A program made the position numbers and the translations under genes. A DNA stretch of 64,000 nucleotides from an uncultured Alphaproteobacteria bacterium (GTDB lineage Bacteria > Pseudomonadota > Alphaproteobacteria > CAAHEQ01 > UBA3637): contig CALXUR010000001.1 in NCBI GenBank assembly GCA_944391735.1, positions 14,924 to 78,923 on the forward strand, written 5' to 3'. This document shows positions 6,466 through 59,573 of the stretch, piece by piece (the first letter of the stretch is position 1; each line of letters opens with the position of its first letter). The notes under the pieces are model-generated. The model saw only the letters and a program-made list of their open reading frames with translations, had not been told where the DNA came from and made no database searches.

Positions 6466-6478
6466 AGGATATAATACG

Positions 6479-7441: not shown

Positions 7442-7522
7442 TTTCTACTCCCATGTATCGGCAATAACTTGAACCGGAAGGATCGACATAAAGCGTTGGC
7501 TTGTTGGAGCATTTTATAGCAA

Positions 7523-8489: not shown

Positions 8490-8506
8490 AGGTATCCTTT
8501 TTTGGC

Positions 8507-8602
8507 TTAAGGGTGGCGGTTTTTAGTTTTTTTCTTATTCTTCAATACGGTTAAGAGCGTTGGCAAGATGATTTGAGCTAGAAGTTTAAGTTGTTTTTCC
8601 AT
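8507..8602 (-). CDS. Candidate 31-aa hydrophobic peptide (type I toxin-like)
   Basis: Hand translation gives MEKQLKLLAQIILPTLLTVLKNKKKTKNRHP, preceded by GGAGAA. The peptide is a single hydrophobic helix plus a Lys-rich tail. Confidence 0.2.
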   Translation of the reverse strand: MEKQLKLLAQIILPTLLTVLKNKKKTKNRHP

Positions 8603-8651
8603 GTGTTCTCCTTTCAATTGAGGACATCACCATATATGCTCGTTTATATCA

Positions 8652-9980: not shown

Positions 9981-10134
9981 AAAAATAGTTTTTAAACATA
10001 CCTTTTCATTTTTCTGAATACCTTTGTATTTTTCAATATATACAAAGGGTTATTTATTGTTTCGGAATCTGTTTTTAATCACAAACTTTTGTTTGTAGAC
10101 GAAAGTCAATTAACAAACAAAAGGAGAAACAGGT

Positions 10135-10622
10135 ATGAAACAAAATCTCACACCGGTATTGCCAACTCATATTCAAAAATTCATTAAAATTCAGGTTGTT
10201 CGACTTATACGAACGCCTTTTTTTGTTATCAGGATCGAGAAGATTTAGAACAAGAACTATGGCTGTTTTATTTTCAAAAATTAAAAGCATTTCAAAACCC
10301 TCGTGTGAACGAGGGTTTCTTTTTTATCGCTATCCGCAACAAAGCATTGGAAATGTTACGAACCAAAAAACGACAAATACATTATTCCCAACAGTACATT
10401 AATGAAGAACTGCTCGCTTCCATTAAAGCAAATCCCATTAAAAACACAGAAGATCAGGAAACTGTTTCAAAAATGTTTGCGGGATTAACATTAAATAAGC
10501 GGGAATGCCTTTTGCTGATCATGGGAGGTGCTAACATCCGAGAAACGAGCCGTTTATTAAATATATCAAAGGAGTCAATTTATAAGATTTTAAAGAAATT
10601 GAAAGAAAATTTTGAAAGTTAG
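10135..10622 (+). pseudogene. Sigma-70 family (ECF/phage-type) sigma factor, frameshifted at a T7 run
   Basis: AAGGAG precedes the ATG at 10135. Frame 1 stops at 10246. Region-2-like 'YQDREDLEQELWLFYFQKLKAF...FFFIAIRNKALEMLR' and the region-4 HTH 'ECLLLIMGGANIRETSRLLNISKESIYKILKKL' continue in another frame. One extra T at 10218-10224 would join them. Confidence 0.7.
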
Positions 10623-10683
10623 CGACACTTTTGGACTGAGCGGCATTTGTAACTGATGAGGAAATAAATGAAAGGAGATTTTG

Positions 10684-10893
10684 ATGAAAAAATCTATTTC
10701 CACTTTTACACGCATCCGAAATATTCCCATTCATCAGTTGATCTGCTGGAAAACTGAAAAACTGGAAAAAACGGAACAAGATGTTCTTAAAGAAATATCA
10801 TATCTAAAAATCCAATTAAAACGAGCAAATCTAACTCTACGTTGGATTAGAGGCATTATTCGAATCAAAACCAACCGGAGGGAACATGGATAA
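10684..10893 (+). CDS. Hypothetical small protein
   Basis: An ORF whose end overlaps the next gene's start. No motif recognised. Confidence 0.3.
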   Translation: MKKSISTFTRIRNIPIHQLICWKTEKLEKTEQDVLKEISYLKIQLKRANLTLRWIRGIIRIKTNRREHG

Positions 10894-11551
10894 AAAGAGT
10901 TCTTTTATTTTCTTTCCGGCAGAATTTTTGTCAGCCATACATAATTTCCGAAAAAGTCAGGTAGCGGATTTAATAATTGCGCTCTGCGAAATTAATTATT
11001 ACGGAGACCTGTCTGTAAAATTATCAGACCCGGTAAAAAAGCGTTTAGAAAATTTACAAGCCACTATTGAAAAGAATAATGCCAAATATAAGGAAATTTG
11101 CGAAAAACGCCAAGCAAGCGGTGCAAAAGGCGGAAGCAAACGTCAAGCAAAAGACAAGCAAACACCAAGCAAACGCAAAGCAAAAGTTCCGCCACCCCAC
11201 ACGGGTGAGTCGGAGAATGAGAATGAATCGGATAATGTAAATGAAAATGGAGATAAAGATAAAGGGGCGGATTGTGTGGATAAGTCGGAATATGTCGGTG
11301 CGCCGAGTGTTGATGAGGTGGCGGCGTATTGCAAAGAAAGCGGGTACACGATTGACCCTGTTGCGTTTGTGAAATGGAATGAGGCTCGTGGCTGGATGAA
11401 TGGCAAGAAGTATATTGCCGTTGATTGGCGTAAAGCCGTTCGGAAATGGTTTTGCAAAGAAAACGGACTGTCACTCAGTGAAATGGAGACTTTCTCGGAT
11501 GTTTGTGCCGATATGCTGGACAAAGTAAAGGCGGTGCACCATGAAAGTTAA
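10886..11551 (+). CDS. Phage replication-associated protein (conserved phage C-terminus type)
   Basis: The C-terminus 'VDEVAAYCKESGYTIDPVAFVKWNEARGWMNGKKYIAVDWRKAVRKWF' matches the pattern of the conserved phage C-terminal domain (Phg_2220_C type). The middle is a low-complexity basic linker. Confidence 0.6.
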   Translation: MDKKSSFIFFPAEFLSAIHNFRKSQVADLIIALCEINYYGDLSVKLSDPVKKRLENLQATIEKNNAKYKEICEKRQASGAKGGSKRQAKDKQTPSKRKAKVPPPHTGESENENESDNVNENGDKDKGADCVDKSEYVGAPSVDEVAAYCKESGYTIDPVAFVKWNEARGWMNGKKYIAVDWRKAVRKWFCKENGLSLSEMETFSDVCADMLDKVKAVHHES

Positions 11552-11926
11552 GAGTATTGATGAAATCAAAGACATCTTGGAAACAGCCGCTTATGTTGAT
11601 CGTCTGCTTCCCGCTGTTCAGGCTCCGAAATATCGGTGTTGCATGCCGGAGATTATTTATACGCCCCAAGAAATCGCCTTTATGGATCGGCGGCCGGTTA
11701 GACCTCGCCCAACCCAAGAACAGGTCAGTTTATGGGAAATGGTTATTTTGAATGGATGCCGCTTTTAGAGATTTATGAACGGCGACTGGTTTGGAAACGT
11801 GCTAATCGTATTCCATGGAAACTGCTTTGCCGCGAATTCGGGGTTTCTCGGCAACAATTGTGGCTAAAATACGACAAAGCACTCACAAAAATTCAGTTCG
11901 GTACAAAGCCCAAAAAATGTCATTGA
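11541..11926 (+). pseudogene. Phage-type HTH-like gene split by a frameshift at a T4 run
   Basis: ORFs 11541..11768 and 11732..11926 overlap. Adding one T at 11746-11749 yields a continuous '...QVSLWEMVIFEWMPLLEIYERRLVWKRANRIPWKLLCREFGVSRQQLW...'. Confidence 0.45.
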
Positions 11927-12027
11927 CATCTTTTGGCTTTACATTTTACCCATTTTCAACCTATGTTATGGTTATAATCGGGACGAATCCATAAGGAACG
12001 TCCCTTATTTTTACAAAAAAGCATTGG

Positions 12028-12056
12028 CTCGTCAGCTCTGGCTGACGGGCTTTTTT
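12028..12056 (+). terminator. Rho-independent terminator-like hairpin just upstream of the MetK-like start
   Basis: A 9-bp stem ctcgtcagc/gctgacggg with loop tctg, followed by cTTTTTT. A weaker hairpin gggacg/cgtccc plus a T-rich tail lies at 11980-12012. Confidence 0.6.
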
Positions 12057-12077
12057 CATATCCAAAAAGGAGAAATT

Positions 12078-12773
12078 ATGAAAAAAACAGCGGAAGCGGT
12101 GTCGCTCGGACACCCCGATAAAACGGCGGACTATATCTCAAGTTACATTTTAGACCGAATGATTGCCCAAGACGAGCAAGTCAAATATGCGGTTGAAGTT
12201 ATGATTAAAGACAATACGGTGGTTTTGGGTGGCGAGATTACGGGTAATGTGGATTTATCCAATCTTGAAGAGTTTGTTAAAAATGCACTTCGTGATATCG
12301 GGTATGATGAATGTTATGCTGAAAACTGGGGTACAAATGCCATAGATGTCCGCAAAATTGAAGTCATAAACCTCATAGGTCAACAGTCAGCAGACATAAA
12401 CCAAGGTGTTATTTCCAACGGTTGGGGCGATCAAGGCGTGTTTGTTGGTTATGCTTGCAAGGGCGACGGACTTATCAGCAAGGAACAATATCTAGCCCGT
12501 TTCTTGAACAACGCCCTTTATATCAAGGCCCGCCAGAGTAAAAACCTCGGGATTGATATCAAAACGCAAATTACCCTCAATGATTACGGGCATATTGAGA
12601 CGGCAATTGTCGCCCTTCCGATGCTTGAACACGAAGATTTGAGCGGTTTTATTGTTCAAACATTGGGTGAAAAGCCCGATAACATCATCGTAAATGGCAC
12701 AGGGACGTTCAAATTGCATTCCTCCATCGCAGACTGCGGCATTACCGGTCGCAAATTAGCCTGCGATTTTTAG
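12078..12773 (+). pseudogene. metK: S-adenosylmethionine synthetase (MetK)-like gene lacking the C-terminal third
   Basis: 'VSLGHPDKTADYIS..ILD', 'QSADINQGV', 'GWGDQGVFVGYA' and 'DCGITGRKLACD' match MetK blocks. The ORF stops right after the GRK motif, and no downstream frame continues the family sequence. Confidence 0.7.
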
Positions 12774-12824
12774 AATATTCCCAAAAAATTTTAAGCATTC
12801 AGAGTTTTTCCAACAAAATAAAGT

Positions 12825-12853
12825 TTGACTTTTAAATTTATTTGTGATATAAT
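12825..12853 (+). promoter_or_regulatory. Near-consensus sigma-70 promoter with extended -10
   Basis: TTGACT (12825-12830), a 17-nt spacer ending in TG, then TATAAT (12848-12853). The next ATG is at 12862. Confidence 0.65.
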
Positions 12854-12861
12854 ACGGATTT

Positions 12862-13388
12862 ATGGATTTAAGTTATATAGAACAATATAGGTTACTTTAT
12901 AAAAACAAGCCAAGATATGGGAAGACTTCTTTATCGTTGTTTCCTATTGTGGCACCGTTAATACGACAAATGGGTTGTTCTGAAATTTTAGATTATGGTT
13001 GTGGGCAGAGCCAACTTGCTGATGTTTTGGAGAAAAAATTGAACGTATTCGTATATAAATATGATCCAGCGATTGCCAAATTTTCTATCCTTCCAACAAG
13101 AAAATTCGATTTTGTAATTTGTACAGATGTTTTACAACATATTCCAATTAAGGATTTAAATGAAGTTCTTTTACAAATAAAAAAATATTCATCTAACTGT
13201 TTTTTTATATTAAGTGTTCAAAACATCATACATTATTACCCAACGGCATGTTGGCAAATTGTACAGTTCATTCACCAAAATGGTGGCAAACCAGACTAGG
13301 CCTTTTTTTTAATATTGTTACAAAAATGCCTACGGAAGATAAAACGATTGCCTCTTTTGTAACAAAAGGAGTTCATAATGACTTATAA
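12862..13388 (+). pseudogene. Class I SAM-dependent methyltransferase, frameshifted at a T7 run
   Basis: Motif I 'ILDYGCGQSQLA' and 'FDFVICTDVLQHIP' are present. After the T-run at 13200-13206 a sensible C-terminus ('YIKCSKHHTLLPNGMLANCTVHSPKWWQTRL...') continues in the other frame to a stop at 13386-13388, overlapping the next ATG. Confidence 0.7.
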
Positions 13389-14550
13389 TATTCATATTAG
13401 AGATGAAATATTTGGTGGTACGGTTTTAAACTTGATTACAGGAAAGAGAGAATATGTTAATGAACAAGAATTATCTGATATCCTTGTATATAATAGATTT
13501 CCTACCAATTCTATTACTAAAAATATAGATCAGCATCATTATATTAAACATATTTCTATAGAGGATAGTAAAAAAATTAAGAACGGATTTAGTTTTGCTG
13601 ATGTAGCATTTATTGAATTAACCAGAGCGTGCAATTTAAAATGTCCTCACTGTTTAAACAATTCTGGTTCAAAACAAAATTCTCAAATGTCTTTCAGAGA
13701 AATTACAGAGCTTATTAAAGAACTGGCCTGTGCCGGACTGCAGGAAATCAGATTTACGGGTGGAGAACCGCTATTACATCAAAATCTTTATGATTTTATC
13801 CAATTAACAACTGATTTGGGACTATATTCATCTTTGGGAACAAATGGAACTCTATTAACTGAGGAAGTTGCGCTAAACTTAAAAAAAGCAGGATTAAGAA
13901 AAGCTGTGGTCAGTATTGATGGCACTCAAGAGCAACATGATAAAATCAGGGGGACTGGAAATTATACTAAATCATTTAATGCCTTATATTATTTAATAAA
14001 AAATGATATAGATGTACGTATTAATTCAGTGCTTATGAAATCTAACATGAAAGATATTATTGATTTTGCGAAACAAGTTCATGATAAGAAAATTTTACTT
14101 TTTATTAGACGATTCATAGAATCTGGAAGAGGGAGTTCTTTAAAAAACAATATGTTAAGCAAAAAAGATTATGATTATGTTAGACAAAGTTTAAGTAATG
14201 AACTTGAAACTGGAGGATATGTTAATGGTCACTATTTACGAAATGATGAGGGAATACATCCTCGAATTTCACTGCCATTTAAAATTAAAGCTTGTAAAGC
14301 AGGACAACGAGCATTAGCAATTATGCCTAATGGTGACATACACCTGTGTGGTTTTTTGGCGGCTCAAAATTTTCCGGCAGTTAGCAACATAAGAGAAATT
14401 CATGATTGGTCTTTGTTTTGGAAAAATCTACAAGCGTCAGATCAATTATCTGATTTATATAATAATTTAGATAAATATAATAGTGTTCCTGGTATTCAAA
14501 CAACCTATTGTTTGGCATATGTGCAAAATTTTTTAAATAAGAGGCAATAA
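13378..14550 (+). CDS. Radical SAM enzyme (PqqE-like core) with N-terminal extension and twitch/SPASM-like C-terminal region
   Basis: The CX3CX2C motif sits in 'ELTRACNLKCPHCLNN'; 'RFTGGEPLL' and 'GTNGTLL' are also present. The C-terminus has 'CKAGQRALAIMPNGDIHLCGF' plus one more Cys. An extension of about 80 aa precedes the cluster motif. Confidence 0.85.
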   Translation: MTYNIHIRDEIFGGTVLNLITGKREYVNEQELSDILVYNRFPTNSITKNIDQHHYIKHISIEDSKKIKNGFSFADVAFIELTRACNLKCPHCLNNSGSKQNSQMSFREITELIKELACAGLQEIRFTGGEPLLHQNLYDFIQLTTDLGLYSSLGTNGTLLTEEVALNLKKAGLRKAVVSIDGTQEQHDKIRGTGNYTKSFNALYYLIKNDIDVRINSVLMKSNMKDIIDFAKQVHDKKILLFIRRFIESGRGSSLKNNMLSKKDYDYVRQSLSNELETGGYVNGHYLRNDEGIHPRISLPFKIKACKAGQRALAIMPNGDIHLCGFLAAQNFPAVSNIREIHDWSLFWKNLQASDQLSDLYNNLDKYNSVPGIQTTYCLAYVQNFLNKRQ

Positions 14551-14552
14551 CA

Positions 14553-15143
14553 ATGTTAATCGCTTTAACCGGATTACATGCAGCTGGGAAAAGTCACTTC
14601 ACACACACAATCCCAGAGAAGTTTGGATTTTCTGTTTATAACAAAAAAGAAGTGATTGCTACAATTTGTCAAAATGAAACCGGACGTAAAGATTGGGATG
14701 TTTGGTATCGAGATGAATTTAGAAAAGATCCATATTTAATGACATCTAAAATTATTTCTGTTATACCTAAAAGTGAAAATAGCATATTGGATTCGGTTCA
14801 CAGCTATAATGAGTGGCAAATTATAAAACAGATAAGAGAAGAGTGTTTCTTATCAGTGGTTGTAACACCTAAGCTTATCCGTTCTTTGCGATGGGAAAAA
14901 GATGATAAAACAAAGGATTTACAACGCATTAAGTATTGGCATAGTGTATATGGAGAAGAATTAGGGTGTTTATTGGCGGAGGCAGATTGGTCGTTTAATG
15001 GGGCCGCGTCACAAGAACTAAACGAAAAGGGATTTAAAGAATTGATTGGGCTGCTTTCTCGGAAACGATGCATTTCCCATCAGATACCGTTAAAACAATT
15101 AGAGCAACAAAGACAAAGAGGGATTGAACATGACAATTGTTAA
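14553..15143 (+). CDS. P-loop NTPase / nucleotide-kinase-like protein
   Basis: An N-terminal Walker A 'LTGLHAAGKS'. The size (196 aa) and layout resemble small nucleoside or nucleotide kinases. Confidence 0.55.
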   Translation: MLIALTGLHAAGKSHFTHTIPEKFGFSVYNKKEVIATICQNETGRKDWDVWYRDEFRKDPYLMTSKIISVIPKSENSILDSVHSYNEWQIIKQIREECFLSVVVTPKLIRSLRWEKDDKTKDLQRIKYWHSVYGEELGCLLAEADWSFNGAASQELNEKGFKELIGLLSRKRCISHQIPLKQLEQQRQRGIEHDNC

Positions 15144-15576
15144 AAAAGCCGGCTGTGTTTTAATAAATAAAAAAACAAAAATGATTGGGTTAATCTATAG
15201 ACAAAAACAAAAAGATTATTCTTTTTCAAAAGGTCATTTAGAAGAGGGAGAAACTTTAGAAGAATGTGCTATAAGAGAAACAGAAGAAGAAACAGGGAGG
15301 ATGTGTACCATTATTCCATCACAACCGCTTCCAGTTTTAAGGTACATAGATTCAAAAGGTGATAAAACAGAAGCTTTTTATTTTTTAGCACAAGATATAG
15401 GGTCTTCCACAACAAGTTTTAATCCAGATCTTGTGCATGAAATTATTTGGGTTCCTTATGATAAGGTTGATAAAACTCTATCATATCCAAATTTAATTCA
15501 ATTCTGGAATGATATTAAACCATTAGTTAAGAAGGCATTGTATGAAGATACTAAAGATTTTTTTATCCAGAAATGA
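15130..15576 (+). CDS. Nudix hydrolase
   Basis: Complete Nudix box 'GHLEEGETLEECAIRETEEETG'. Confidence 0.85.
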   Translation: MTIVKKAGCVLINKKTKMIGLIYRQKQKDYSFSKGHLEEGETLEECAIRETEEETGRMCTIIPSQPLPVLRYIDSKGDKTEAFYFLAQDIGSSTTSFNPDLVHEIIWVPYDKVDKTLSYPNLIQFWNDIKPLVKKALYEDTKDFFIQK

Positions 15577-15796
15577 TGATTCCGAAATGTGTATGATTTA
15601 TGATGTTATTGTGCATCCGCATTATCAGAAAAAAGGGGTTGGCACCCTATTGATGAATGAGGTTTTAAAATACATTCAAACCAATCATTTTGCGACCGTC
15701 AGTTTGTTTTACGATACTAATAATAATACGTTAACCCGTTTTTACGAAAAATTTGGATTTATCCAAATTCCAAATACAATGCGATTAAAAAAGTAA
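15542..15796 (+). pseudogene. GNAT acetyltransferase fragment (C-terminal half only)
   Basis: Contains motif A 'VHPHYQKKGVGTLLMNEV' and the 'FYEKFGF' tail. Only about 84 aa remain, and the start overlaps the preceding Nudix gene. Confidence 0.55.
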
Positions 15797-15973
15797 AATC
15801 CTTAGGAATTGATATCTTGAACGTGCCAGAACTTTACTTTCAAAGAGATACTTTTATCAATACATATTTACAAAATTGATTTGATATTTTATTAAAACTT
15901 TTGTATATTGAAACGATAAAAAGATGTTTTGAAGGTATCACCATTTATTCCAAAATCAAAAAGAAAAGATAGA

Positions 15974-16465
15974 ATGAAAATCTATATTATCGGCGGACCC
16001 GGCAGCGGAAAAACGACTTATGCCAAAAAATTATCTGCAAAATGGTGCATTCCTCATTTTGATTTAGATGAAATCAAATGGGTTAATGGAGGCAGTCAAT
16101 CTCCTTATAATCAAAAACGATCCCCGGAAGAGCGAACACGTCTTTTAAATGATATTCTAACCCAAAACAATCATTGGATTTGTGAGGGGGTTTATTTTCA
16201 AGATTGGATAATACCCGTCATCCAACAAGCCGATATTGTCCTTATTTTACAAACTTCCACCTGGATTCGGCAATATCGCATTATTAAACGGTCTTTTAGG
16301 CGATTATTCCATTTTGATCCCCCCAAATATAAAGAAACGCCCCTCACTTTGTTTCGTTTATTGCGTTGGTCCCAGGTTTATGATACAAAATATTTACCTC
16401 AAGCATTGGCAAAAATCACAGCTGCAAAAACCAAATATCATATTATCAAACGAAGGAAAAAATGA
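15974..16465 (+). CDS. P-loop kinase of the adenylate-kinase / 'topology modulation' (FlaR-like) type
   Basis: 'MKIYIIGGPGSGKTTYAKKLS...PHFDLDEIKW'. It resembles the ORF at 25815..26339. Confidence 0.65.
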   Translation: MKIYIIGGPGSGKTTYAKKLSAKWCIPHFDLDEIKWVNGGSQSPYNQKRSPEERTRLLNDILTQNNHWICEGVYFQDWIIPVIQQADIVLILQTSTWIRQYRIIKRSFRRLFHFDPPKYKETPLTLFRLLRWSQVYDTKYLPQALAKITAAKTKYHIIKRRKK

Positions 16466-16872
16466 CATATTGCATTAAAAAATCGGCGGCGGTTTTTATT
16501 TTCCAAAAAGGAAATGAATATTTATTCCTGAAAAGGGAGCACACCGGTGCAGGGGATGGGTTTTATATGTTGCCTGCCGGACATATCGATGACGGGGAAA
16601 CTGTTTTAGAAGGGGCCGTCCGTGAAATACAAGAGGAGCTAAATGTAACGGTTCAACCTCAAGATTTAGAGTTTAAAATCGTAGTTGTCACACAAACACA
16701 CGTTAATTTTTTCTTTCAGATAAAAAAATACACGGGTGTATTAAAAAATAATGAATTAGCAAAACACAGTGATTTAAAATATCTGCCACTGACAGCAAAA
16801 GACATTTCTCCCGATATTCCTATTAAGATCTCTTTAATAGAAAAAGGGGTATATTTTTGGGAAGAAAAATGA
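16462..16872 (+). CDS. Nudix hydrolase
   Basis: Nudix box 'GHIDDGETVLEGAVREIQEELN'. The ATG overlaps the previous stop (ATGA). Confidence 0.8.
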   Translation: MTYCIKKSAAVFIFQKGNEYLFLKREHTGAGDGFYMLPAGHIDDGETVLEGAVREIQEELNVTVQPQDLEFKIVVVTQTHVNFFFQIKKYTGVLKNNELAKHSDLKYLPLTAKDISPDIPIKISLIEKGVYFWEEK

Positions 16873-16983
16873 AAAAAATCAACAGAGCAAAATATATCGG
16901 TTGTAACACAGGCGGGTAATTTAAACAGATTACGTCAGATAAAAAATTAAAGTGTAACAAAGAAGAATCAAAAGGATCCTATT

Positions 16984-17496
16984 ATGAAAATATTAAACCC
17001 CGTTCAAATGATAACTGACGATATTTGTTTTCAGACGGAAAATCAACGTCGATTTCGATTAAGGGCGGCCGGTATTATTATTGAAAACAAACAGATTTTA
17101 TTTGCCCATAATGAAAAAGAACCGTATTATTATTCTGTCGGCGGAGCAATCAAGTTGGGAGAAACTGCCGAAGAAGCCTGTATACGAGAGGTTTTTGAGG
17201 AAACCGGTATTCATTACGAAATTGACAGACTTGCCTTTATTCACGAGAACTTTTTTAAACGGGATGACGGAACACTCAAAGGATTAGACTGTCATGAAAT
17301 TAATTTTTATTTTCTCATGAAATCTCGAGGGACACAAGTTCTCAACAGTCACAGTTCAACACTCGGCATTCCGGAGCACATGGCTTGGCTACCGATGAAC
17401 GCATTGGATCAATACGAAGCCTATCCGATGTTTTTCAGAACAAAATTAAAAAACATCAAAACATCAGGCTTTGAACATATTATAACACGCGGGTAA
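16984..17496 (+). CDS. Nudix hydrolase
   Basis: Nudix box 'GGAIKLGETAEEACIREVFEETG'. Confidence 0.8.
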   Translation: MKILNPVQMITDDICFQTENQRRFRLRAAGIIIENKQILFAHNEKEPYYYSVGGAIKLGETAEEACIREVFEETGIHYEIDRLAFIHENFFKRDDGTLKGLDCHEINFYFLMKSRGTQVLNSHSSTLGIPEHMAWLPMNALDQYEAYPMFFRTKLKNIKTSGFEHIITRG

Positions 17497-17500
17497 ACAA

Positions 17501-18208
17501 ATGATAGAATTTTACGTTTCCTCGGATACCGAAAAACAAAAACTAATGGATATTTTTTGTGTCGCCCCTATCGGGAAATCTTTAATGGAACGAGCAAAAC
17601 AATACCATTTCCCCCCGGATATGGCAAAGAAAATGCAAACAAGTCCTCGGATCCAATGGGATGAGGCGTTAGAAGAGTTGTTGGAGACAACATACTTAAA
17701 ATATAAAAACGATCTCGAGGTCGCCCACTCTTTTTTTCATTGCTTCTGGAATAAAAACGGAGAAGCTTATTTATCAAAACTCGACTCTTTTTTCGGGGAG
17801 AGATTTCCGGATTATCGCGTTTTACTGGCATGTTATTTAGATGTTGTTTCCAACTGGAAAGAGTGTAACATCGTGATTAATCATGCCCTGTATAAAAAGG
17901 CAAATGTGTTATACTCTGTTTACGGCATTCTTTTTGAAATGGTTTTATCTCAAATTTTTATAAAAATACGCACCCTTAAAAATAAAACAGAAATGTCCGA
18001 TAAACAAGTATGGGGACGTTCGGAACTGGCCGCTTGCGCTATTTTAAACAAATTATATCCGGCATTTCAAAATTCCGTGAAAACAGGGTATCCCGAACTT
18101 GATTCATCGATGCCTTTATTTTTGGAGGTAATTCAAAAAGCGACGCATTTAACGCCTTTTTTAAACGAAACAATCAATCTGACACTCCCGTTTGATAGAA
18201 AAGAATGA
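17501..18208 (+). CDS. Hypothetical protein (235 aa)
   Basis: A long ORF tightly packed between its neighbours; its stop overlaps the next ATG. No motif recognised. Confidence 0.5.
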   Translation: MIEFYVSSDTEKQKLMDIFCVAPIGKSLMERAKQYHFPPDMAKKMQTSPRIQWDEALEELLETTYLKYKNDLEVAHSFFHCFWNKNGEAYLSKLDSFFGERFPDYRVLLACYLDVVSNWKECNIVINHALYKKANVLYSVYGILFEMVLSQIFIKIRTLKNKTEMSDKQVWGRSELAACAILNKLYPAFQNSVKTGYPELDSSMPLFLEVIQKATHLTPFLNETINLTLPFDRKE

Positions 18209-37426: not shown

Positions 37427-38773
37427 TCATCTTGTTGTCCCCGCAATGATGACAGGCCTTTTTTCCGATGTAACCTGAGCCACTTCTTTTTGACCACGCA
37501 CCGCTTCCAAAACCCGACGATCGGATGCCAATTCATCGGTTCTTCTCTTCATGCCACCCTGCATCCGTGCAGTTGCTTCAATCATATCTTTATTTTGCGC
37601 CAACGCATCCATCTGTTGACGTGCCACGGCTTGATTGAATGAAGCCACAAGCGTCGGCTTAACCTTTTCTTCAATCTGATCCCGTATCATATTATCTGTC
37701 ATACATGTAGCGGCTACGCTGACCGATGCCCGGGCGATTGATTTTCCCGCATTTTTCAAACGTCGCCCCCAACCGCCGAAAAAACCTTCATCTTCAGTAG
37801 CTTTCTCATTACCACCGACCATTTTTTGACCAGCAATCTTCGTTAAATCGATCGCTCCATATTTATCCATGGCCATTACGTTTTCCTGAACCATGTCATA
37901 AAACAAATCTGCGTCCTTTTCCGTGGCCAAACGCACTTTTCCGGAAGGTTCTTTAACAGAAATGGTATAGTTTTTAGGAATCATCGCGCTCAACCGATTT
38001 GTCATTTTTTCTTTCAAATCGGAGGTAACGTTCATATCTTCGGCCAGTTTCCCGCTATTAAAATCGGCCGCCATTTTCGCAAGATAATCTTTCTGTTCTT
38101 CAGAAGATTTACCCGCCATTCCGTCTATGGAGGCACCGGCTTTTTGTATCACACCGCTCTGTTCCAAATCCGCATAAGCGGCGGACATTCCCTGAACCAG
38201 ACGGGTAACCTCCTGTTGCGGAACGTTAATGATAAAGGATGGTTTTGAAGAATCCTTGGCCGAATCCGGATATGTCAACACTAAATTCAATCCATTGCTC
38301 ATATCCACCGACGATCCGCTGTTCGCCCAAAAATCCCGCAATCCTTTCGGATTCATGGAATAACCGGCAAAAGAAATATCCTTGTCTCCGGCCAACGGGC
38401 GAAACAGATAATCAACCGCGCTTTTCACGACAAATTGTCGGTGTTCCAACGGTTCCCCCGCCTTTTCCATTTGAGTGTTCAATTGGACAGCATATTTTGA
38501 AATCGCGGGAAAAGCTTTTTTATCCAAATTACCGTCCCGATCGGATGAATAAACGGATAATCCCGTCAGATAATTATTGAAATCCAGTGTTTTTTTCAGG
38601 TCTTCCTGAGATTTTTCCATCGGAAGCGTTTCGGCCTGTTGTGTTATCCGAACATCGTCCGGTGCCTCCGTTTTATCCGTATTCGGAGCCGCCCGCGTCA
38701 CGGAAGCCGCAACAACATTCATTCCAAGCAATCCGGCTTGCGCCACTTTTTGAAATTGTTTTTTTAACGACAT
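37427..38773 (-). CDS. Hypothetical secreted protein (448 aa)
   Basis: The N-terminus is signal-peptide-like ('AQAGLLGMNVVAASVTRA'). No motif recognised. Confidence 0.55.
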   Translation of the reverse strand: MSLKKQFQKVAQAGLLGMNVVAASVTRAAPNTDKTEAPDDVRITQQAETLPMEKSQEDLKKTLDFNNYLTGLSVYSSDRDGNLDKKAFPAISKYAVQLNTQMEKAGEPLEHRQFVVKSAVDYLFRPLAGDKDISFAGYSMNPKGLRDFWANSGSSVDMSNGLNLVLTYPDSAKDSSKPSFIINVPQQEVTRLVQGMSAAYADLEQSGVIQKAGASIDGMAGKSSEEQKDYLAKMAADFNSGKLAEDMNVTSDLKEKMTNRLSAMIPKNYTISVKEPSGKVRLATEKDADLFYDMVQENVMAMDKYGAIDLTKIAGQKMVGGNEKATEDEGFFGGWGRRLKNAGKSIARASVSVAATCMTDNMIRDQIEEKVKPTLVASFNQAVARQQMDALAQNKDMIEATARMQGGMKRRTDELASDRRVLEAVRGQKEVAQVTSEKRPVIIAGTTR

Positions 38774-38919
38774 TTAAGATACCTCCAACTTCCTATTTTC
38801 TTTTAGTTTACCACAAATCGCTTTTTCTGTCAACACATAACGCAAACCGGTCGTTTATAAAAAGCTTGCTTTTCATACCCGTTTCAGATTATACTGTAAT
38901 CAATCAGTGGGAGGTTATC

Positions 38920-39846
38920 ATGACAAAAGCAACAAAATCATTGTCCGAAGAAGCTGTTCCGGTTAACGAGATCAAAGCGCCGACGCCCCGTTCGTTTCGC
39001 CGTTTTTTCAAATCCGTTCTGGTTGTCTTTTTATCCGTTCTGTGTGTCGGTGCGGGTGTCTTAATTTATCAAATACACCACCGATTGGATCAATTCCATC
39101 CGATTTTACCGACATTGCGCCCCGCCCCACTGGCTCCGCTATCCCAGCGGCCTAAACCGGCAAGCCCCTCAATCAATCAGACGGCAACAGCATCAAATCG
39201 TGTTCTTCCGAATGCGGAAAAGCAACCGTCCGAGTCAAAGCAAGGGTTGGCGCGTATCACCTCCGAAGATACAGCGGTCACGGTGATTGAACCGGATCCG
39301 GCCGCCAATATCGAAAAACAACCGGAAACATCTTTACCCGTTTTTACCCTGAGTGATGCATTAACCTTGCGAGATCACCTGAACAGTGCTGTTTCCTGTC
39401 GGGAAGATCTGCAAACACTTTTAAAAAGCAGAATTCCCGGGGACGAGTGGAACTCAATGGTTGAAAAATTAACACCTATCTGTGTTACGGATGAAACCAT
39501 CATGACGGAAATGAATACGTTGTTTCGTCGAAATAAAAAAAGAGCCGTTATCGCCTATTACCATAAAAACAATCCGTGGTGGCTGGCTTATTTAAAAGCG
39601 GTTTCGGTAGCAATCATAGAAATACGGCGCATCAATCCTCAAACGGAAACACCATCGGACATTTTATCCGCGGCACAAAATCAATTAGCGCAACGAGATA
39701 TCGGAGGAACCGCCGATCTCATTCGTAAATTACCTTCGGAAATGCAAACCGCGTTTCAATCTTTTTTGGATAAAGCCGATGATTACAAGGCCGCCCAACA
39801 AGAAGTTGACAGGCTGATTTTATTATTTGAACGGAAAGGAAAATAA
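38920..39846 (+). CDS. Membrane-anchored protein, possible alphaproteobacterial Mic60-like (COG4223-type)
   Basis: GGGAGGT precedes the ATG at 38920. The protein has one N-terminal TM helix and a Pro-rich linker. Its C-terminus ('AAQNQLAQRDIGGTADLIRKLPSEMQTAFQSFLDKADDYKAAQQEVDRL') resembles the mitofilin-like tail. It lies directly upstream of a hemY-like gene. Confidence 0.45.
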   Translation: MTKATKSLSEEAVPVNEIKAPTPRSFRRFFKSVLVVFLSVLCVGAGVLIYQIHHRLDQFHPILPTLRPAPLAPLSQRPKPASPSINQTATASNRVLPNAEKQPSESKQGLARITSEDTAVTVIEPDPAANIEKQPETSLPVFTLSDALTLRDHLNSAVSCREDLQTLLKSRIPGDEWNSMVEKLTPICVTDETIMTEMNTLFRRNKKRAVIAYYHKNNPWWLAYLKAVSVAIIEIRRINPQTETPSDILSAAQNQLAQRDIGGTADLIRKLPSEMQTAFQSFLDKADDYKAAQQEVDRLILLFERKGK

Positions 39847-39848
39847 CC

Positions 39849-41033
39849 ATGATGAAACTTGTTGTCTCGCTGATCGGCATTTTTTTACTGGGTTTTCTGA
39901 TCGTTAACGACACTTGGTCGGTTACAATTATCGGGTTCGGATATGAAGTAACATCATCCGTGTTTTTATTTATAGCCGCAGTGCTCATAATGATTTATCT
40001 CTTATCTCTGATTCGAAAACCTTTCGGTTGGTTCGGCGGATATCAAAATTGGTGCCGGACACGCAAACAAAATCAAAAAGAGGCTTACTTAATCTTGGCT
40101 TTAAAAACGGCTTTGGATCGTAACGAAAAAAACATTGATCTCTTAATGAAACAGCGCAAAGCCGTTTTTCCGCCAAAATCAAATGAATCTTTGATGATTG
40201 AGGCGTTATTTCAACCATCTCCCCATGTATTTGAACAATTGCTTCATCGCGACGGAACGGAAATGACAGGCATCCGCGGATTGTTGGAATACGCCCAGAA
40301 AAACGGAGATTTAACAGAAGTCGGGCGATTGTTGCAAAAAGCGGTGGCAAAGGTTCCCGATGAATCGTGGATACAAGAATCCCTTTGGTCGTTGCAAACC
40401 CTTCAGAGCGATTGGGGCGATGCGCTCAACACCTTGGAAATACTGAAAAAAAGAGATTTAATCGATAAAAAAACTTATTTTGTCCGAAAATCGTGTTTAT
40501 TATTAAAGCTGGGACGTGCTCGGGACGCATTCAATCTAACCCCTGACAATCCGGCAGCGGCGATAGCCTATGCCAAACAAGTCCCCCAGAAAGCCTTGAG
40601 TATCCTGATTGATTCGTGGGCTCAAACACCGTGTTGGGAAACTTATGTTTTGTTCCGTGACAACATTCGGAATGAAAAGCCGGCCAAACAAATGAAGCTG
40701 GTTGAAAAACTGGTTCGCAAGAATAAAGAAAGTCGCTTATCTTTCATTGCATTAGCGCAAACCGCCATGGATGCACACATGTGGGGTGCGGCAAAAGAAC
40801 ATATGACGGCTTATTTCAACGCTTATCCGATCACACCGCAGACCGCCCGAATGATGGCCGAGATTGAACGTGAAGGCTGGCATCATGAGGAAGGAGCTGC
40901 AGAATGGGAGGAAAAAGCAACAACATCTGAAGAACTCGGGGGTTGGGGGTGTTCTGTTTGCAACCATGCCACCGAGTCATGGGAGGCCTGTTGTCCTACC
41001 TGTAACACCTTTGGAAGCATACGGTATAAATAA
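39849..41033 (+). CDS. HemY-like membrane/TPR protein with C-terminal zinc ribbon
   Basis: Two N-terminal TM helices sit in a HemY_N-like arrangement. The body is helical-repeat, and the C-terminus is 'CSVCNHATESWEACCPTCNTFGSI'. Confidence 0.6.
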   Translation: MMKLVVSLIGIFLLGFLIVNDTWSVTIIGFGYEVTSSVFLFIAAVLIMIYLLSLIRKPFGWFGGYQNWCRTRKQNQKEAYLILALKTALDRNEKNIDLLMKQRKAVFPPKSNESLMIEALFQPSPHVFEQLLHRDGTEMTGIRGLLEYAQKNGDLTEVGRLLQKAVAKVPDESWIQESLWSLQTLQSDWGDALNTLEILKKRDLIDKKTYFVRKSCLLLKLGRARDAFNLTPDNPAAAIAYAKQVPQKALSILIDSWAQTPCWETYVLFRDNIRNEKPAKQMKLVEKLVRKNKESRLSFIALAQTAMDAHMWGAAKEHMTAYFNAYPITPQTARMMAEIEREGWHHEEGAAEWEEKATTSEELGGWGCSVCNHATESWEACCPTCNTFGSIRYK

Positions 41034-41097
41034 AATCTATTGACAAAAAGACAAACCTTTCATATACTATCATTGAAACAACAAGGGTTGTATAAAA

Positions 41098-41844
41098 ATG
41101 ATGACAGATGCAGCATATCATCGGTTGGGAAGGACATGCGTCAAACGGCAAAATGATTTAAGGCAAGCCGGAGAAATGGCGGTAGAAGCTTTTTTCAAGA
41201 TGCCCGCCCTTTCTGTCAACATAAAAAACATTTCGCATGTATCCGAACCCGTTTTTATTCCGTTGTTTTGCCAAAACCTACTAACAGAAAGTCGGCACAA
41301 AAATTACTTTATTCGAACGGTTCTCTGGAAAACACCTTTATCAACCATCTTATGGAATCGTTCCGTAACACCGATGTTGTTGACAACGGAAAAATGTCAA
41401 AACATTAACGATATGATTGCCTCTGCCGAAAGGGAGTTGACTCTGTTTAAGGCAAGTCCCTTATATCGTTTAACAATTCGCACTCATCAAGAATGGGATC
41501 GGGAAACCGGGCGGCGATACCAAGTGTTATTTGACAAGGCATTTGATAACCTTGAAAAAACGGTCTGTCCCCACACGCATCCGTTCCCATCATCCGACAT
41601 AAAAAACGAAATAAAAAAACTCCTTTTCAAAATAGCCTGTTATGCCACTATAAAAGATAGCTTCGGATGCACGGTTCAGTTGGAAATGAATCCCGCTCAA
41701 TTAAAGCGTATTCAATCGGGCATTGCCGAAAAAATACCGGATTTAAGCGTTCCTTTTCAAAAGGCCTGTGTTAAAATCCGGAGCCATGAAAGCCCGTTGC
41801 CCATCATTTCAAATTACTATAAAAAAGGCCTGGACAGGTCTTGA
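41098..41844 (+). CDS. Hypothetical protein, tandem paralog A
   Basis: Shares a block with the next ORF (C-x3-DM-x2-A...PL...RYQ-x-L-x-D...NL). Confidence 0.5.
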   Translation: MMTDAAYHRLGRTCVKRQNDLRQAGEMAVEAFFKMPALSVNIKNISHVSEPVFIPLFCQNLLTESRHKNYFIRTVLWKTPLSTILWNRSVTPMLLTTEKCQNINDMIASAERELTLFKASPLYRLTIRTHQEWDRETGRRYQVLFDKAFDNLEKTVCPHTHPFPSSDIKNEIKKLLFKIACYATIKDSFGCTVQLEMNPAQLKRIQSGIAEKIPDLSVPFQKACVKIRSHESPLPIISNYYKKGLDRS

Positions 41845-41864
41845 TTTGCTGAAAGGAAAAAGAT

Positions 41865-42563
41865 ATGAACGATCAAGAATATCAAGATATGCAAACCATT
41901 TATTGGCAAATAAAAGATAAAGAAAAAGATCTTTTAGAGGACGAGATAGGTTGGTTTTTGTCAGAAATCAATGGCAAAACAATAGTTGCGTATGAAGGGC
42001 AAGAAGAGACATCCCTTCGGAATGTTTGCCGAGATATGTTGCGTATGTCCCGCATGGACGCTGTGGAGGTCAGGACAGTCCTTGAAAGAGATGAAGATAT
42101 TTTTTTCTTATCCACTGCCGGATGTGAAACGGAGCGAGACATGGTTCAAGCGGCGAAAAAAAGACGAAACGAATTGCGGCAAAAACCTTTAAGCCGCCAT
42201 TTATTGAAGATTCAAAAACAATTGGACGAAGAACATAGTGCCCGATATCAAAAATTATTAGATGTCACATGGCAAAATTTGGCTCGATCATTACAAAAAC
42301 TGACAAACCAACCCCGCACCCGGGAGGATGTATATACATTCGGAAATCAAATAAAGCGCCTCTCCGTCTTGTCAGAAACGCGCGGATTGAATAATAAAAG
42401 ATTACCGCTGCACTTATCCTCGGAACAGCAAGAATATATGAAAAAACATATTAACAGTACCGCTCAAACGGAACAACAACTGGCCAAGCTGATTGCCTCT
42501 CGAATTAATCAGCATCGTCCCCTTAATATCCGTGTTTTTTTCGCTGACAATACACGGGAATAA
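41865..42563 (+). CDS. Hypothetical protein, tandem paralog B
   Basis: See paralog A. Its block reads 'CETERDMVQAAKKRRNELRQKPLSRHLLKIQKQLDEEHSARYQKLLDVTWQNL'. Confidence 0.5.
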   Translation: MNDQEYQDMQTIYWQIKDKEKDLLEDEIGWFLSEINGKTIVAYEGQEETSLRNVCRDMLRMSRMDAVEVRTVLERDEDIFFLSTAGCETERDMVQAAKKRRNELRQKPLSRHLLKIQKQLDEEHSARYQKLLDVTWQNLARSLQKLTNQPRTREDVYTFGNQIKRLSVLSETRGLNNKRLPLHLSSEQQEYMKKHINSTAQTEQQLAKLIASRINQHRPLNIRVFFADNTRE

Positions 42564-57156: not shown

Positions 57157-58431
57157 CTATTTATGGCAATAGAACATATGGTTAGAGGATAAGTCGGAAA
57201 GACCAACTTGTCCATAAATACTGCTCACCCAGAACCCTGAACAATTATCCGCTTTTTTATCTAACCAATGAGCTGCATCTCCGAAATGTCCCCACATCAT
57301 ATGCGCACACACACGCTGTCCAAGTGTTCCATCCCAATCTGGACACGCCTCGTTCATAGAGGCTAAATGGGCACCAATCGCCTGACACCAATTTTTAGCC
57401 GCCCAGTAAGATAAGCGCATCCCCTCGGTATAATAAAAGGAATCTTGATTATCTGTTGTCTGCCATTCTATAATCTCTCCGATTTTTTGACAACTCCCTC
57501 GAAAATTAGTATATGAGCATGAAGTCCCTCCTGTTTTGGTTGCAAGAATTTGACAGAACTCATCTTCCTGACAATCCCGATTTGTTGTGCAGTTACCGGA
57601 AACATCAATACATGCCCCATTCTCACATCGTTGATACTCACCACAACAAATCGTTCCGCATTGATATTCGGATAAACACCGACAGACACCGTTTTGACAA
57701 CTTTGATTCCTCGGACATTCATAGTCGCCGGCACATGCGGTGGCCCCCTCCTCCAAACAATCCGCACAAGGCCTCAATTCTTTTGTAAAAACAAACCCCA
57801 TGGTCGTTTCCAATTCACCACAAGCCTCCGGATTGTCTTTCGTCACAACAACATCATCAGCCGTTATTTGAATGGGACGATCATAGCCGCTGTTGATAAT
57901 GTGACGACAGCTGGCCGACGAAACTTCCGTTACTTTGACTCGAAACAGCTGTGATCCCAATTTTTCTCCCGTTACGACAGAACTGCCCAGATTCTTTTCA
58001 TTTTCAAATTCGGTAGAAGACAGATCCCCGTTTGCAATCATCTGTTGAGAGTAAACGACAGAGCGTCGATTGACTTCGTTAATGATATTATTCGCCATCG
58101 CGCGTTCCATCGCCATATTATATCCTTTAGCCCCCAGAATGGCTAATAATCCCATCAAAGCCAAGACACCTAACATCTCCACCATTGATTTACCCGATTC
58201 GGAATCGTTTTTGGGACTTCCCTTTTTATGGATTCCCGTGCGCTCCTCTTCTTTCGTCATTCCCGTGCGCTCCTCTTCTTTCGTCATTCCCGTGCTCTGA
58301 CACGGGAATCCAGTAATACGTATATCCATTTTTATGGATTCCGGCTCGGAGGCCGGAATGACGGGGCGTGTATTTTCCGATTCGTTTTTAGCCGCTTTCG
58401 TATTGAGGGTAACCTTTTGTTTTTCCGTCAT
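57157..58431 (-). CDS. Type IV pilin-like protein with Cys-rich modules and a C-type-lectin-like C-terminal domain (start uncertain: 58431, 58287 or 58260)
   Basis: Prepilin-type motif 'G|KSMVEMLGVLALMGLLAILG' with Glu at +5. A Cys-rich stretch follows ('CADCLEEGATACAGDYECPRNQSCQNGVCRC...CENGACID..NCTTNRDCQEDEFC'). The C-terminus reads 'LSYWAAKNWCQAIGAHLASMNEAC...FYCHK'. Confidence 0.6.
   Translation of the reverse strand: MTEKQKVTLNTKAAKNESENTRPVIPASEPESIKMDIRITGFPCQSTGMTKEEERTGMTKEEERTGIHKKGSPKNDSESGKSMVEMLGVLALMGLLAILGAKGYNMAMERAMANNIINEVNRRSVVYSQQMIANGDLSSTEFENEKNLGSSVVTGEKLGSQLFRVKVTEVSSASCRHIINSGYDRPIQITADDVVVTKDNPEACGELETTMGFVFTKELRPCADCLEEGATACAGDYECPRNQSCQNGVCRCLSEYQCGTICCGEYQRCENGACIDVSGNCTTNRDCQEDEFCQILATKTGGTSCSYTNFRGSCQKIGEIIEWQTTDNQDSFYYTEGMRLSYWAAKNWCQAIGAHLASMNEACPDWDGTLGQRVCAHMMWGHFGDAAHWLDKKADNCSGFWVSSIYGQVGLSDLSSNHMFYCHK
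58223..58362. repeat. Cluster of short palindromic (REP/RPE-like) elements plus a 27-bp tandem duplication
   Basis: The unit cgctcctcttctttcgtcattcccgtg occurs at 58241-58267 and again at 58268-58294. Palindromes are attcccgtg/cacgggaat (58286-58309) and attccggc/gccggaat (58338-58359). The direct repeat tttttatggattcc occurs at 58223 and 58329. Confidence 0.85.
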
Positions 58432-58684
58432 AAAATCCTTCCTTTCAATGTTAAAAAATAACGGTCATTATTTTTTTACATTTTCGGAAAGATGCCCAAA
58501 ATACGCTCCTTTCTTGGAAATTCAATGAAAAAGTCCTTGCCAGACGATAGCCCTCTATGTTATAAAATCTATAACATTTTACTGACCCTTTTTTCGTTAT
58601 AATCCAGTACACCAAAAGCAAGAATATCCCTCTTAATGATAAACATGCTCTTTTAAAAGCTAAAAATTGTTATTTTAGGATAAA

Positions 58685-58880
58685 AAAAGAAAGGGGGAAG
58701 GAAGAAGCCCCCTTTCTCAAAACAGAAACACAGGAAGAAGTTTCTGTTTTACCGTCGGCATTTGAGTTTAAGGTCTATTAAAATTTCGCCGACGTTTTGT
58801 GATCTAACAGCTTATTCAGCCGCCGACCGCAAAAGTGTTCCATCAAAAATCAATCCCAAACTCATATCTCTCTCCTTAAC
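58685..58880 (-). ncRNA. Candidate small transcript: strong SD + 17-codon ORF, then three hairpins ending in an intrinsic terminator
   Basis: On the minus strand, AAGGAG (58877-58872) precedes an ATG at 58865, with the stop at 58812. Hairpins lie at 58753-58794, 58719-58750 (11 bp) and 58689-58716 (9 bp, GC-rich), the last followed by T7. Confidence 0.3.
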
Positions 58881-59226
58881 GTTATATAGGTAACAGGTTA
58901 TTTTTTTCAATTCTTTTTTGATAAAAAGCTTTGCTTTTTCGTCTATCCGTTCCCATATTAACTGTATAAAAAGTCGCCGTGATGAAGGGCGACTGGAAGT
59001 TGGAAACTACAAGAGAATATAGTGTTGTGTATTTGGGAAATTATCCCTTATTCCACGACCTTCCAGACGCATTTGCGGTTAAAAGGTCAGAGACCTTTTT
59101 CTCTTCAGTTTTCCAAAACCCGAATCAGGAACCACCCAACTCAGGTTCCTAAAATAGCATGATTTTTTTGAAGCGTCAAGTTTATTTTTATCAAAAAACA
59201 GATTTTTTTAATTTTTGAGATTTTCC

Positions 59227-59351
59227 GTTATGGTGGTGGCCGGACAAAGAAGCAGGGTAACAACAAAAGTAACATGCCACAGGAAGAAACAGCATTTTGA
59301 TTCACTTTTGTAATAGCCCCTCGCCATTCCGCGTCCGGCCGCCACCATAAC
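59227..59351. repeat. 19-bp imperfect inverted repeat enclosing 87 nt (structured RNA or MITE-like element)
   Basis: gttatggtggtggccggac (59227-59245) pairs with gtccggccgccaccataac (59333-59351), 18/19 complementary. The interior hairpin atgc/gcat carries the same cacaggaagaa motif as 58730-58739. Confidence 0.6.
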
Positions 59352-59386
59352 AAAAAAAAACGCCCCGTCCACAACACCGGCGTTTC
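59352..59386 (-). terminator. Minus-strand intrinsic terminator about 190 nt downstream of tolA
   Basis: The minus strand reads aacgccgg...cggggcgtt followed by T9. Confidence 0.55.
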
Positions 59387-59573
59387 AACACATTTTAATC
59401 ACTACTTTACGGGTATATAAATACCCAACACTTTTTCTTGTGATAATGAGGTTTCGACGCCCCGAAGCAGAGTTTTCTGTTCCTATTTTAGGATAACAGC
59501 AAAACAACCAAAAGTAAAGAGGATATTTAAAAATACTGTCAATTAATTTTTATTTCACACATTGAACGGTCAA

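Follow-up and report, generated by a model that had tools for sequence, protein, structure and literature searches.

A type IVb pilin-like protein with a C-type-lectin-fold head, and its dispersed paralog family, in uncultured gut Alphaproteobacteria

Background

What is a prepilin-like N-terminus doing on a long, Cys-rich protein that ends like a C-type lectin and whose gene lies among housekeeping genes? The question is raised by an open reading frame (ORF) of an uncultured alphaproteobacterium (GenBank assembly GCA_944391735.1, contig CALXUR010000001.1), in a stretch of 64,000 nucleotides (contig positions 14,924 to 78,923) that we call the window. The ORF occupies window positions 57157..58431 on the minus strand and encodes 424 aa plus stop; ENA sequence ERZ28613925 scaffold_22 (229,891 bp) encodes an identical protein, with the window at scaffold positions 14,554-78,553. 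The original prediction, made from the sequence before any database search, described a pilin-like protein fused to Cys-rich modules and a C-type-lectin-like domain. We find that the protein consists of a type IVb pilin module, a disulfide-rich stalk and a head with the C-type lectin-like domain (CTLD) fold, an arrangement that fits the definition of modular type IV pilins (a pilin module, a linker and a non-pilin functional module; PMC8179133). We favor, with some reserve, its interpretation as a type IVb minor pilin of the modular kind whose head is a compact CTLD, and which is probably a tip adhesin.

Results and Discussion

Overall architecture

The translated ORF contains the strings on which the prediction was built: CQNGVCRC, CENGACID, NCTTNRDCQEDEFC and, at the C-terminus, MRLSYWAAKNWCQAIGAHLASMNEAC...HWLDKKADNC...FYCHK. 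Of the 24 Cys residues in the mature part, residues 81-220 contain 2, residues 221-309 contain 16 and residues 310-424 contain 6. Pfam and NCBIfam searches of the 424-aa protein find nothing significant, with no match to N_methyl, Lectin_C or EGF models; the best NCBIfam match, to pseudopilin XpsH, is weak (E = 0.13). Domain calls therefore rest on relatives, on profiles and on predicted structure.

A class III signal on a type IVb pilin module

The signal core, G↓KSMVEMLGVLALMGLLAILG (58132..58194, minus strand; the arrow marks the cleavage site), comprises Gly at -1, Lys at +1, Glu at +5 and the hydrophobic alpha1N segment. It reads G80↓KSMVE85MLGVLALMGLLAILG, as was quoted for residues 80-100 in the original prediction, and so has the Gly-1, the Glu+5 and the run of about 20 hydrophobic residues that characterize class III signals. 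Among 101 paralogs from related genomes, collected with a search pattern that permitted G, A or S at -1, every one has Gly there; 95 of them carry Arg at +1 and 4 carry Lys, and 85 have Glu at -3. The pattern fixed Glu+5, which is therefore uninformative in that set, but this residue is invariant in an alignment of 25 homologous sequences gathered without the pattern. These two invariant positions make a chance motif untenable. The N_methyl model reaches 8 of 17 family members at sub-threshold scores (best E = 0.033).

The signal leads into a type IVb pilin module, residues 81-220 (57772..58191, minus strand), with a 52-residue alpha1 helix, a beta-sheet and the pair Cys175/Cys204. An AlphaFold2 (AF2) model computed from the 25-sequence alignment (predicted local distance difference test score, pLDDT, 75.9) places the helix at residues 4-55 in mature numbering, followed by the sheet, and Foldseek matches it to the type IVb pilins CofA, TcpA and PilS (E = 4e-3 to 0.2, TM-score about 0.43). 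The hallmarks of the type IVb pilin fold, a long alpha1 on an antiparallel sheet and a disulfide region, are thus all seen in the predicted model. Cys175 is invariant in the alignment, and Cys204 is kept in at least 90% of homologs. A profile of the N-terminal module finds pilins in five of its six PDB matches, TcpA at the top and PAK pilin among them, all sub-threshold. In a comparison of profiles, hhalign aligns the family's N-terminal module to the PilS/bundlin-type pilins of the pilus clusters described below at 99.3% probability (E = 9.8e-21, 107 columns), and the alignment passes beyond the helix into the sheet and globular part, conserved Cys included. By this profile alignment the module is homologous to type IVb pilins, and together with the model matching TcpA, CofA and PilS it bears out the earlier reading of the N-terminus as a prepilin-type signal on a pilin module.

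A disulfide-rich stalk

Residues 221-309 (57505..57771, minus strand) hold 16 Cys in mini-modules of the type C-x-[ND]-G-x-C-x-C and are modeled with moderate confidence (pLDDT 63-77). Dickkopf_N scores sub-threshold against the protein itself (E = 3.1); among 25 relatives, EB appears in 9 (best E = 2.7e-4) and Dickkopf_N in 8 (best E = 9e-4), E-values that we read as weak, no bit scores accompanying them. These sub-threshold EB and Dickkopf_N matches are all that links the stalk to extracellular Cys-module families, and the EGF-type modules of the original prediction are not borne out; we treat the stalk as a disulfide-rich spacer and not as a member of the EGF family. A gene for DsbA is present on the same scaffold.

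A compact C-type-lectin-fold head

The last 115 residues (310-424; 57160..57504, minus strand) form a compact CTLD, as AF2, Foldseek and profile searches concur in finding. In this segment alpha1 reads W-x-x-A-x-x-W-C, the WIGL-like strand is HWL and a terminal F-Y-C is present. Modeled alone it reaches a pLDDT of 87.6 and a predicted TM-score (pTM) of 0.80, and the best 50 Foldseek matches in PDB are all CTLD-fold structures (TM-score 0.5-0.66, probability 1.00). They include LLT1 (E = 6e-4), MGL, Ly49C (TM-score 0.66), langerin, CLEC12A and CD94, and also the fibre tip of Bdellovibrio Bd2740 and the C-terminal domain of Legionella Lcl, the latter being a recognized CTLD fold. A profile of the head run with hmmsearch gives 28 PDB matches, PLA2R (3.6e-5), mosGCTL-1 (0.003) and langerin among them, and we recognize all 28 as proteins of the CTLD fold or of the formylglycine-generating enzyme (FGE) fold. 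Three residues are invariant in the head alignment: C40 (the alpha1 Cys), W80 (the WIGL-like Trp) and C113 (the C-terminal Cys). Residues 310-424 are therefore assigned to the CTLD fold, since the predicted fold and the sequence signature both point to that superfamily, and the lectin-like layout noticed earlier at the C-terminus is upheld.

Having the fold does not make the head a lectin. Pfam Lectin_C matches neither the window protein nor any of 25 relatives, the head sequence contains none of the Ca2+/sugar motifs EPN, QPD and WND, and the stretch between the WIGL-like Trp and the last Cys has only about 33 residues, which means that the long loop region is missing. The marks of a Ca2+-dependent C-type lectin (a Lectin_C match, a long loop, EPN or QPD together with WND) are thus absent. 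Lectin activity is not implied, given that loop and motifs are both missing, and neither such activity nor a eukaryotic origin of the head is supported. Among the 25 relatives, Pfam Lcl_C scores weakly in one (E = 0.048) and FGE-sulfatase weakly in one.

The module extends well beyond this family. A search of 1.84 billion representative proteins with the head profile finds 956 clusters (50% identity) at E<=1e-3. Compact CTLD modules joined by Cys-rich linkers occur in giant proteins (P0150, 6368 aa with 20 copies; P0151, 4335 aa), and the module occurs likewise in small proteins with ordinary Sec signals (P0164 and P0194 complete our set of examples). When ten proteins with the module were run against Pfam, the sole match was in P0160, to Xlink, the compact form of the CTLD, and that for the whole protein (30.8 bits) with no single stretch passing.

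A large, dispersed paralog family

A protein search returns 29 relatives, none with a Pfam domain. Scanning species-representative genomes finds at least 534 loci, almost all of them in metagenome-assembled genomes (MAGs) of uncultured Alphaproteobacteria; gut sources of the relatives are human, buffalo, goat and rabbit. A single MAG may contain many copies, at least 11 in the eight SUUT01 loci examined. Members range from plain small pilins of 116-142 aa (mature) through proteins of 300-450 aa to proteins as long as 1145 aa in which Cys makes up 10-15%. The heads are very variable across the 25-sequence alignment; a C-terminal CTLD of the type in the window protein is found in 24 of the 101 paralogs, one of which has two copies. 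Another CTLD-tailed paralog, P0008, lies on the window gene's own scaffold, flanked by dnaJ and ybaB/recR; a third, P0021, is flanked by ssb and gyrA on scaffold_72 from the same sample. Clustering of 1114 ORFs around 80 paralogs reveals no recurrent neighbor gene.

Some of the small pilins stand in tandem, four in locus L076 (15995-18173) and two in L056 (8933-10206), with the same G↓RSMVEML signal. They share contigs with CTLD-tailed members and are distinct from the PilS-like pilins (about 180 aa mature) of the pilus clusters described below. They may be other minor pilins.

The window gene is under purifying selection: its mature part, compared with a diverged allele in locus L085, gives a synonymous rate dS of 0.21, a nonsynonymous rate dN of 0.020 and a dN/dS of 0.10. 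That ortholog, which comes from another sample (ERZ16268090 scaffold_280; L085:20052-21259, minus strand), has a frameshift in the pilin module which divides it into ORFs of 166 aa and 229 aa, and it may be either a strain pseudogene or the product of an assembly error.

Pilus machinery linked to the same signal

A scan of metagenomes seeded with the family's small pilins led to pilins that are linked to assembly machinery. Human-gut contigs of 76-457 kb (L155, L157, L160, L166) and the alphaproteobacterial MAG contig CALXTQ010000004.1 (L169) encode two to three tandem pilins of 187-200 aa that begin ...G↓RSMVEMLGVLAIIGVLSVGGIAGY, the same signal as the family's G↓RSMVEMLGVLAIIGVLS, and that pass Pfam thresholds for PilS_N (E = 2.5e-17) and Bundlin. 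Directly upstream are a TcpQ-like protein, a PilN-type secretin (TIGR02520, 280.6 bits), PAP_PilO, a PilP-family protein, a T2SSE ATPase, a T2SSF platform protein and a bundlin-like minor pilin; a PilT-like ATPase follows the tandem pilins. The NCBI name for a homolog of the cluster ATPase (P0067, 88% identical) is "GspE/PulE family protein [Alphaproteobacteria bacterium]". Cluster-linked pilins with the same signal and the hhalign result together identify G↓(R/K)SMVEM as the prepilin signal, in this lineage, of a type IVb system resembling that of the R64 thin pilus.

Clusters of this R64-like kind are found in L169:1-16089 (CALXTQ010000004.1) and in L155, L157, L160, L166, L168 and L170. Immediately upstream lie two TrbC/VirB2-like genes and a gene for an 886-aa coiled-coil membrane protein, and the cluster is without a PilU-like peptidase or a PilV-like pilin. 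A link of the cluster to conjugation is possible.

Regular expressions for the GspE Walker A motif, the A24 peptidase GxGD-K motif, Flp and TadE find nothing in the first 80 genome loci; over 168 loci the A24 pattern finds nothing and the GspE-type Walker A pattern only the metagenome loci L155, L157, L160 and L166. No A24 peptidase is found in about 2 Mb of related loci, and phmmer with an approximate PilD sequence, a query that makes for a weak search, likewise finds none among the ORFs of those loci. From the relatives we infer that this organism would possess both a type IVb machinery and a prepilin peptidase.

The leader and its inserted repeat element

The leader peptide, residues 1-80 ending in Gly80 (58192..58431, minus strand), is unusually long because of an in-frame insertion; leaders in the 101 paralogs are mostly 6-20 aa. 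Comparison of alleles delimits a repeat element of 183 nt (58194..58376, minus strand) that encodes residues 19-79. It is bordered by a duplication of GAATCGG(G), the target duplication, and is palindromic or resembles a miniature inverted-repeat transposable element (MITE), with two tandem 27-nt units (58232-58285) and a hairpin, ATTCCCGTG..CACGGGAAT. In the 95%-identical allele P0001 the site is empty, and in the L085 allele a shorter relative of the element sits at the identical site. The window contains no second copy of the element. Leaders of many paralogs hold similar repeat-derived peptides (IPAFAGMT, SFLGLTRES, VTGFPCRSTGMT).

A Shine-Dalgarno-like sequence, GAAAGGAAGG, read directly from the DNA, stands 5 nt upstream of the ATG (58437..58446, minus strand). 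The final 90 or so nt before the ATG are nearly identical in P0001 and the window gene, and in the L085 allele, too, about 30 nt spanning the Shine-Dalgarno are identical. The second 27-nt unit of the element supplies GAGGAG-N9-ATG, a possible alternative start from which the leader would be 23 aa long.

Proposed role and competing explanations

We propose the following course of events. The precursor would enter the inner membrane, a prepilin peptidase would cut the cytoplasmic leader after Gly80, and the pilin module (81-220) would join a type IVb pilus of the kind represented by the R64 thin pilus, the toxin-coregulated pilus (TCP) and CFA/III (colonization factor antigen III), most likely at its tip. 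The pilus would then display the stalk, its 16 Cys forming up to 8 disulfide bonds, and a compact Ca2+-independent head that may bind a surface ligand, for which a host or bacterial protein or glycan is possible. Across the family, a common G↓(R/K)SMVEMLGVLA pilin module with differing C-terminal heads would provide a repertoire of alternative adhesins. Cleavage, incorporation into a pilus, location at the tip and binding of a ligand are steps that we infer from the architecture and from the relatives.

A number of observations pull the other way. Position +1 is Lys or Arg, atypical in not being hydrophobic; the window protein has no match at E<=10 to N_methyl (PF07963) or to an NCBIfam prepilin-type N-terminal model, and it misses the Pfam thresholds for PilS and Bundlin. 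Neither the 64-kb window nor the 10 kb around any modular paralog yielded an A24 prepilin peptidase or pilus machinery; the type IVb cluster is seen in related genomes only, and in those, too, the 10 kb around the ATPase contain no peptidase. The prepilin leaders known to us are far shorter than 80 aa, we know of no precedent for dozens of minor pilins in a genome, and the head lacks a recognizable ligand site. Several of these points would be explained if the N-terminus were instead an uncleaved signal anchor that holds stalk and CTLD in the periplasm, where they might bind, for example, a component of the cell envelope. That reading agrees with the want of a peptidase or machinery near any paralog or in the 2 Mb of related loci, with a Lys or Arg at +1 that suits the positive-inside rule, with long and variable leaders that tolerate repeat insertions and with the dispersal of the genes among housekeeping genes. 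A plain anchor, however, would have no need of an invariant Gly-1 or Glu+5, or of a 50-residue helix that packs against a sheet of the pilin type, and this module is homologous to pilins that carry an identical signal inside type IVb operons. Related CTLD modules also travel on proteins with Sec signals, so that a dedicated pilin module suggests another route, and on balance we hold the anchor to be unlikely, though it is the strongest of the alternatives. Membership, as subunit or substrate, in some other type IV filament (a Tad-like system, say, or the pseudopilus of type II secretion) seems less probable still: the weak XpsH match points that way, but by sequence as by fold type IVb pilins match best, the first 80 loci show no Flp or TadE motif, and the sole machinery linked to this type of signal is of the PilN/PilO/PilP type IVb kind.

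The remaining alternatives concern the head. The original prediction saw in it a eukaryote-like lectin for host glycans, and a true Ca2+-dependent C-type lectin derived from a eukaryote would accord with a gut-dwelling organism and with the animal CTLDs (PLA2R, mosquito GCTL-1, langerin) at the top of the profile matches. Against this stand the compact form of the domain, with no Lectin_C match, no long loop and no Ca2+-sugar site of the EPN, QPD or WND kind, and close fold matches that include the Ca2+-independent bacterial heads of Bd2740 and Lcl; the only related protein that reaches a Pfam whole-protein cut-off does so with Xlink, no single stretch passing, and the lectin-fold head of the pilin CofB binds a peptide, not a sugar (PMC6048534). 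We find the idea very doubtful. Hardly any credence is left for a variable CTLD protein diversified by a diversity-generating retroelement in the manner of phage Mtd. CTLD folds are the classic scaffold for such diversification, the trimer arrangement of the fold match Bd2740 is paralleled only by Mtd, and the family heads are indeed very variable; yet no template-repeat-like copy of the gene's 3' end is found in the window, no reverse transcriptase is among the annotated genes from window position 3378 to its end and 4.4 kb beyond, and the variation lies between paralogs, with a dN/dS of 0.10 between alleles.

Returning to the modular minor pilin, we offer as a more speculative extension, which we think rather less likely than its opposite, that in uncultured gut Alphaproteobacteria the single minor pilin or shufflon of classical type IVb pili is replaced by a dispersed gene family, with tip pilins that are interchangeable and number from ten to dozens in each genome. 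The Arg/Lys+1 signal, unrecognized until now, and the varied disulfide-rich heads (compact CTLD or Cys-knot repeats) would then make up a combinatorial repertoire of adhesins directed at host or bacterial surfaces, and the leader site would be a hotspot for in-frame palindromic insertions that perhaps tune expression or processing.

Comparison with known systems

CofB of the CFA/III pilus of enterotoxigenic Escherichia coli (ETEC) is a type IVb minor pilin with an H-type lectin-fold head at the pilus tip, where it forms the assembly-initiating trimer (PMC6048534); it and TcpB of the Vibrio cholerae TCP are type IVb minor pilins in which a pilin module is followed by extra C-terminal domains (PMC6048534, PMC5207764). 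The window protein likewise begins with a type IVb pilin module and continues into extra C-terminal domains. It differs from CofB in that its head is a compact CTLD instead of an H-type lectin fold, and from both proteins in having a 16-Cys stalk as linker where theirs is a beta-repeat domain, in lying outside any pilus operon, in having many paralogs per genome where they have one, and in its Lys/Arg at +1. PilV of the IncI plasmids R64 and TP114 is a minor pilin of the thin pilus, whose pilin part is constant and whose binding specificity depends on alternative C-termini (PMC9045228, PMC5430464). The machinery in related gut Alphaproteobacteria is of the R64-type PilN/PilO/PilP/PilQ/PilR/PilS kind; unlike the PilV shufflon, however, variation here comes from a dispersed multigene family and not from DNA inversion at one locus, and, in contrast to R64, no PilV- or PilU-like gene is in the cluster and the heads are Cys-rich or CTLD.

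Modular type IV pilins, in which modules are grafted via a linker, include PilB (von Willebrand factor A module, vWA) and PilC (concanavalin A-like lectin, ConA) of Streptococcus sanguinis and have been described as widespread (PMC8179133). Catalogued examples were found through N_methyl and are mostly type IVa-like, whereas the present family is type IVb, is greatly expanded and escapes both the N_methyl and the Lectin_C models. Of the InterPro entries relevant here, IPR001304 is C-type lectin-like, IPR011460 is the Lcl C-terminal domain (DUF1566) and IPR005532 is FGE-type. A published catalogue already lists IPR012902 (N_methyl) in combination with IPR001304, IPR011460 or IPR005532 (PMC8179133). 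A further likeness is to Bd2740, the C-terminal domain of Legionella Lcl and phage Mtd, all of which have Ca2+-independent CTLD heads for target recognition at the end of a fibre; those heads are carried by trimeric fibres, coiled or collagen-like, where the present one is carried by a pilin, and sequence identity is only 14-18%.

The claim of a novel adhesin architecture is therefore overstated, since designs that join a pilin to a lectin module are already known, CofB, S. sanguinis PilC and the InterPro-catalogued architectures having come before. New are the type IVb context, a signal with Arg/Lys at +1 that existing models miss, the Cys-rich stalk, how large and dispersed the family is, and its restriction to uncultured gut Alphaproteobacteria.

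Genomic neighborhood

The gene lies between tolQRA, from which a 1.14-kb AT-rich gap separates it, and a gene for an S9-type hydrolase. Past the hydrolase come rplT (L20), rpmI (L35), secDF, yajC, hupB, lon, clpXP and tig, and RuvAB is also near. No pilus-assembly gene turns up between window position 3378 and a point 4.4 kb past the window's end, in agreement with the earlier remark that none is adjacent. The AT-rich non-coding region upstream (58447..59573, unstranded; 36.5% GC over 58432-59573) is presumed to hold the promoter or regulatory sequences; the gap contains no gene, no gene remnant and no Rfam match. The possibility that it is a decayed paralog was considered and rejected, no paralog remnant being found. 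The upstream neighbor is tolA here and uvrA beside the P0001 allele (L175), which places a synteny breakpoint just upstream of the gene. In the window, tolB and pal are not downstream of tolQRA. The S9 hydrolase, as called, begins within the 3' end of the pilin-like gene, an overlap of 59 nt (57157-57215) that would vanish if its internal Met at residue 35 were the start. The two genes have the same direction and may be co-transcribed.

Two other parts of the window deserve mention. Positions 1-18200 form a low-GC island (31-36%, against about 44%), entirely on the plus strand, with genes for a type I restriction HsdR protein (1060 aa), a DpnI-like protein, a serine recombinase, an S-adenosylmethionine (SAM)-synthetase-like protein, a methyltransferase, a radical SAM protein and three NUDIX proteins, and the region is probably a defense or mobile island that became integrated. 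At 37427-42563, five consecutive genes (448, 308, 394, 248 and 232 aa) have no recorded Pfam match. The middle two look, by eye only, like HemX/HemY-like membrane proteins and the others are charged proteins; on reading, the genes at 37.4-42.6 kb show no prepilin motif of the family and no hint of pilus function.

Conclusions

Current domain libraries miss both the G↓(R/K)SMVEM subclass of prepilin signals and a compact bacterial CTLD family of hundreds of clusters. Many modular pilins are in consequence missed, and surveys based on such libraries undercount them. If the proteins described here are tip adhesins, then poorly known but widespread Alphaproteobacteria of the gut (human, ruminant, rabbit) devote a large gene family to surface recognition by type IVb pili, and the family would offer a way to study how these uncultured organisms adhere to mucus, to host cells or to other bacteria.

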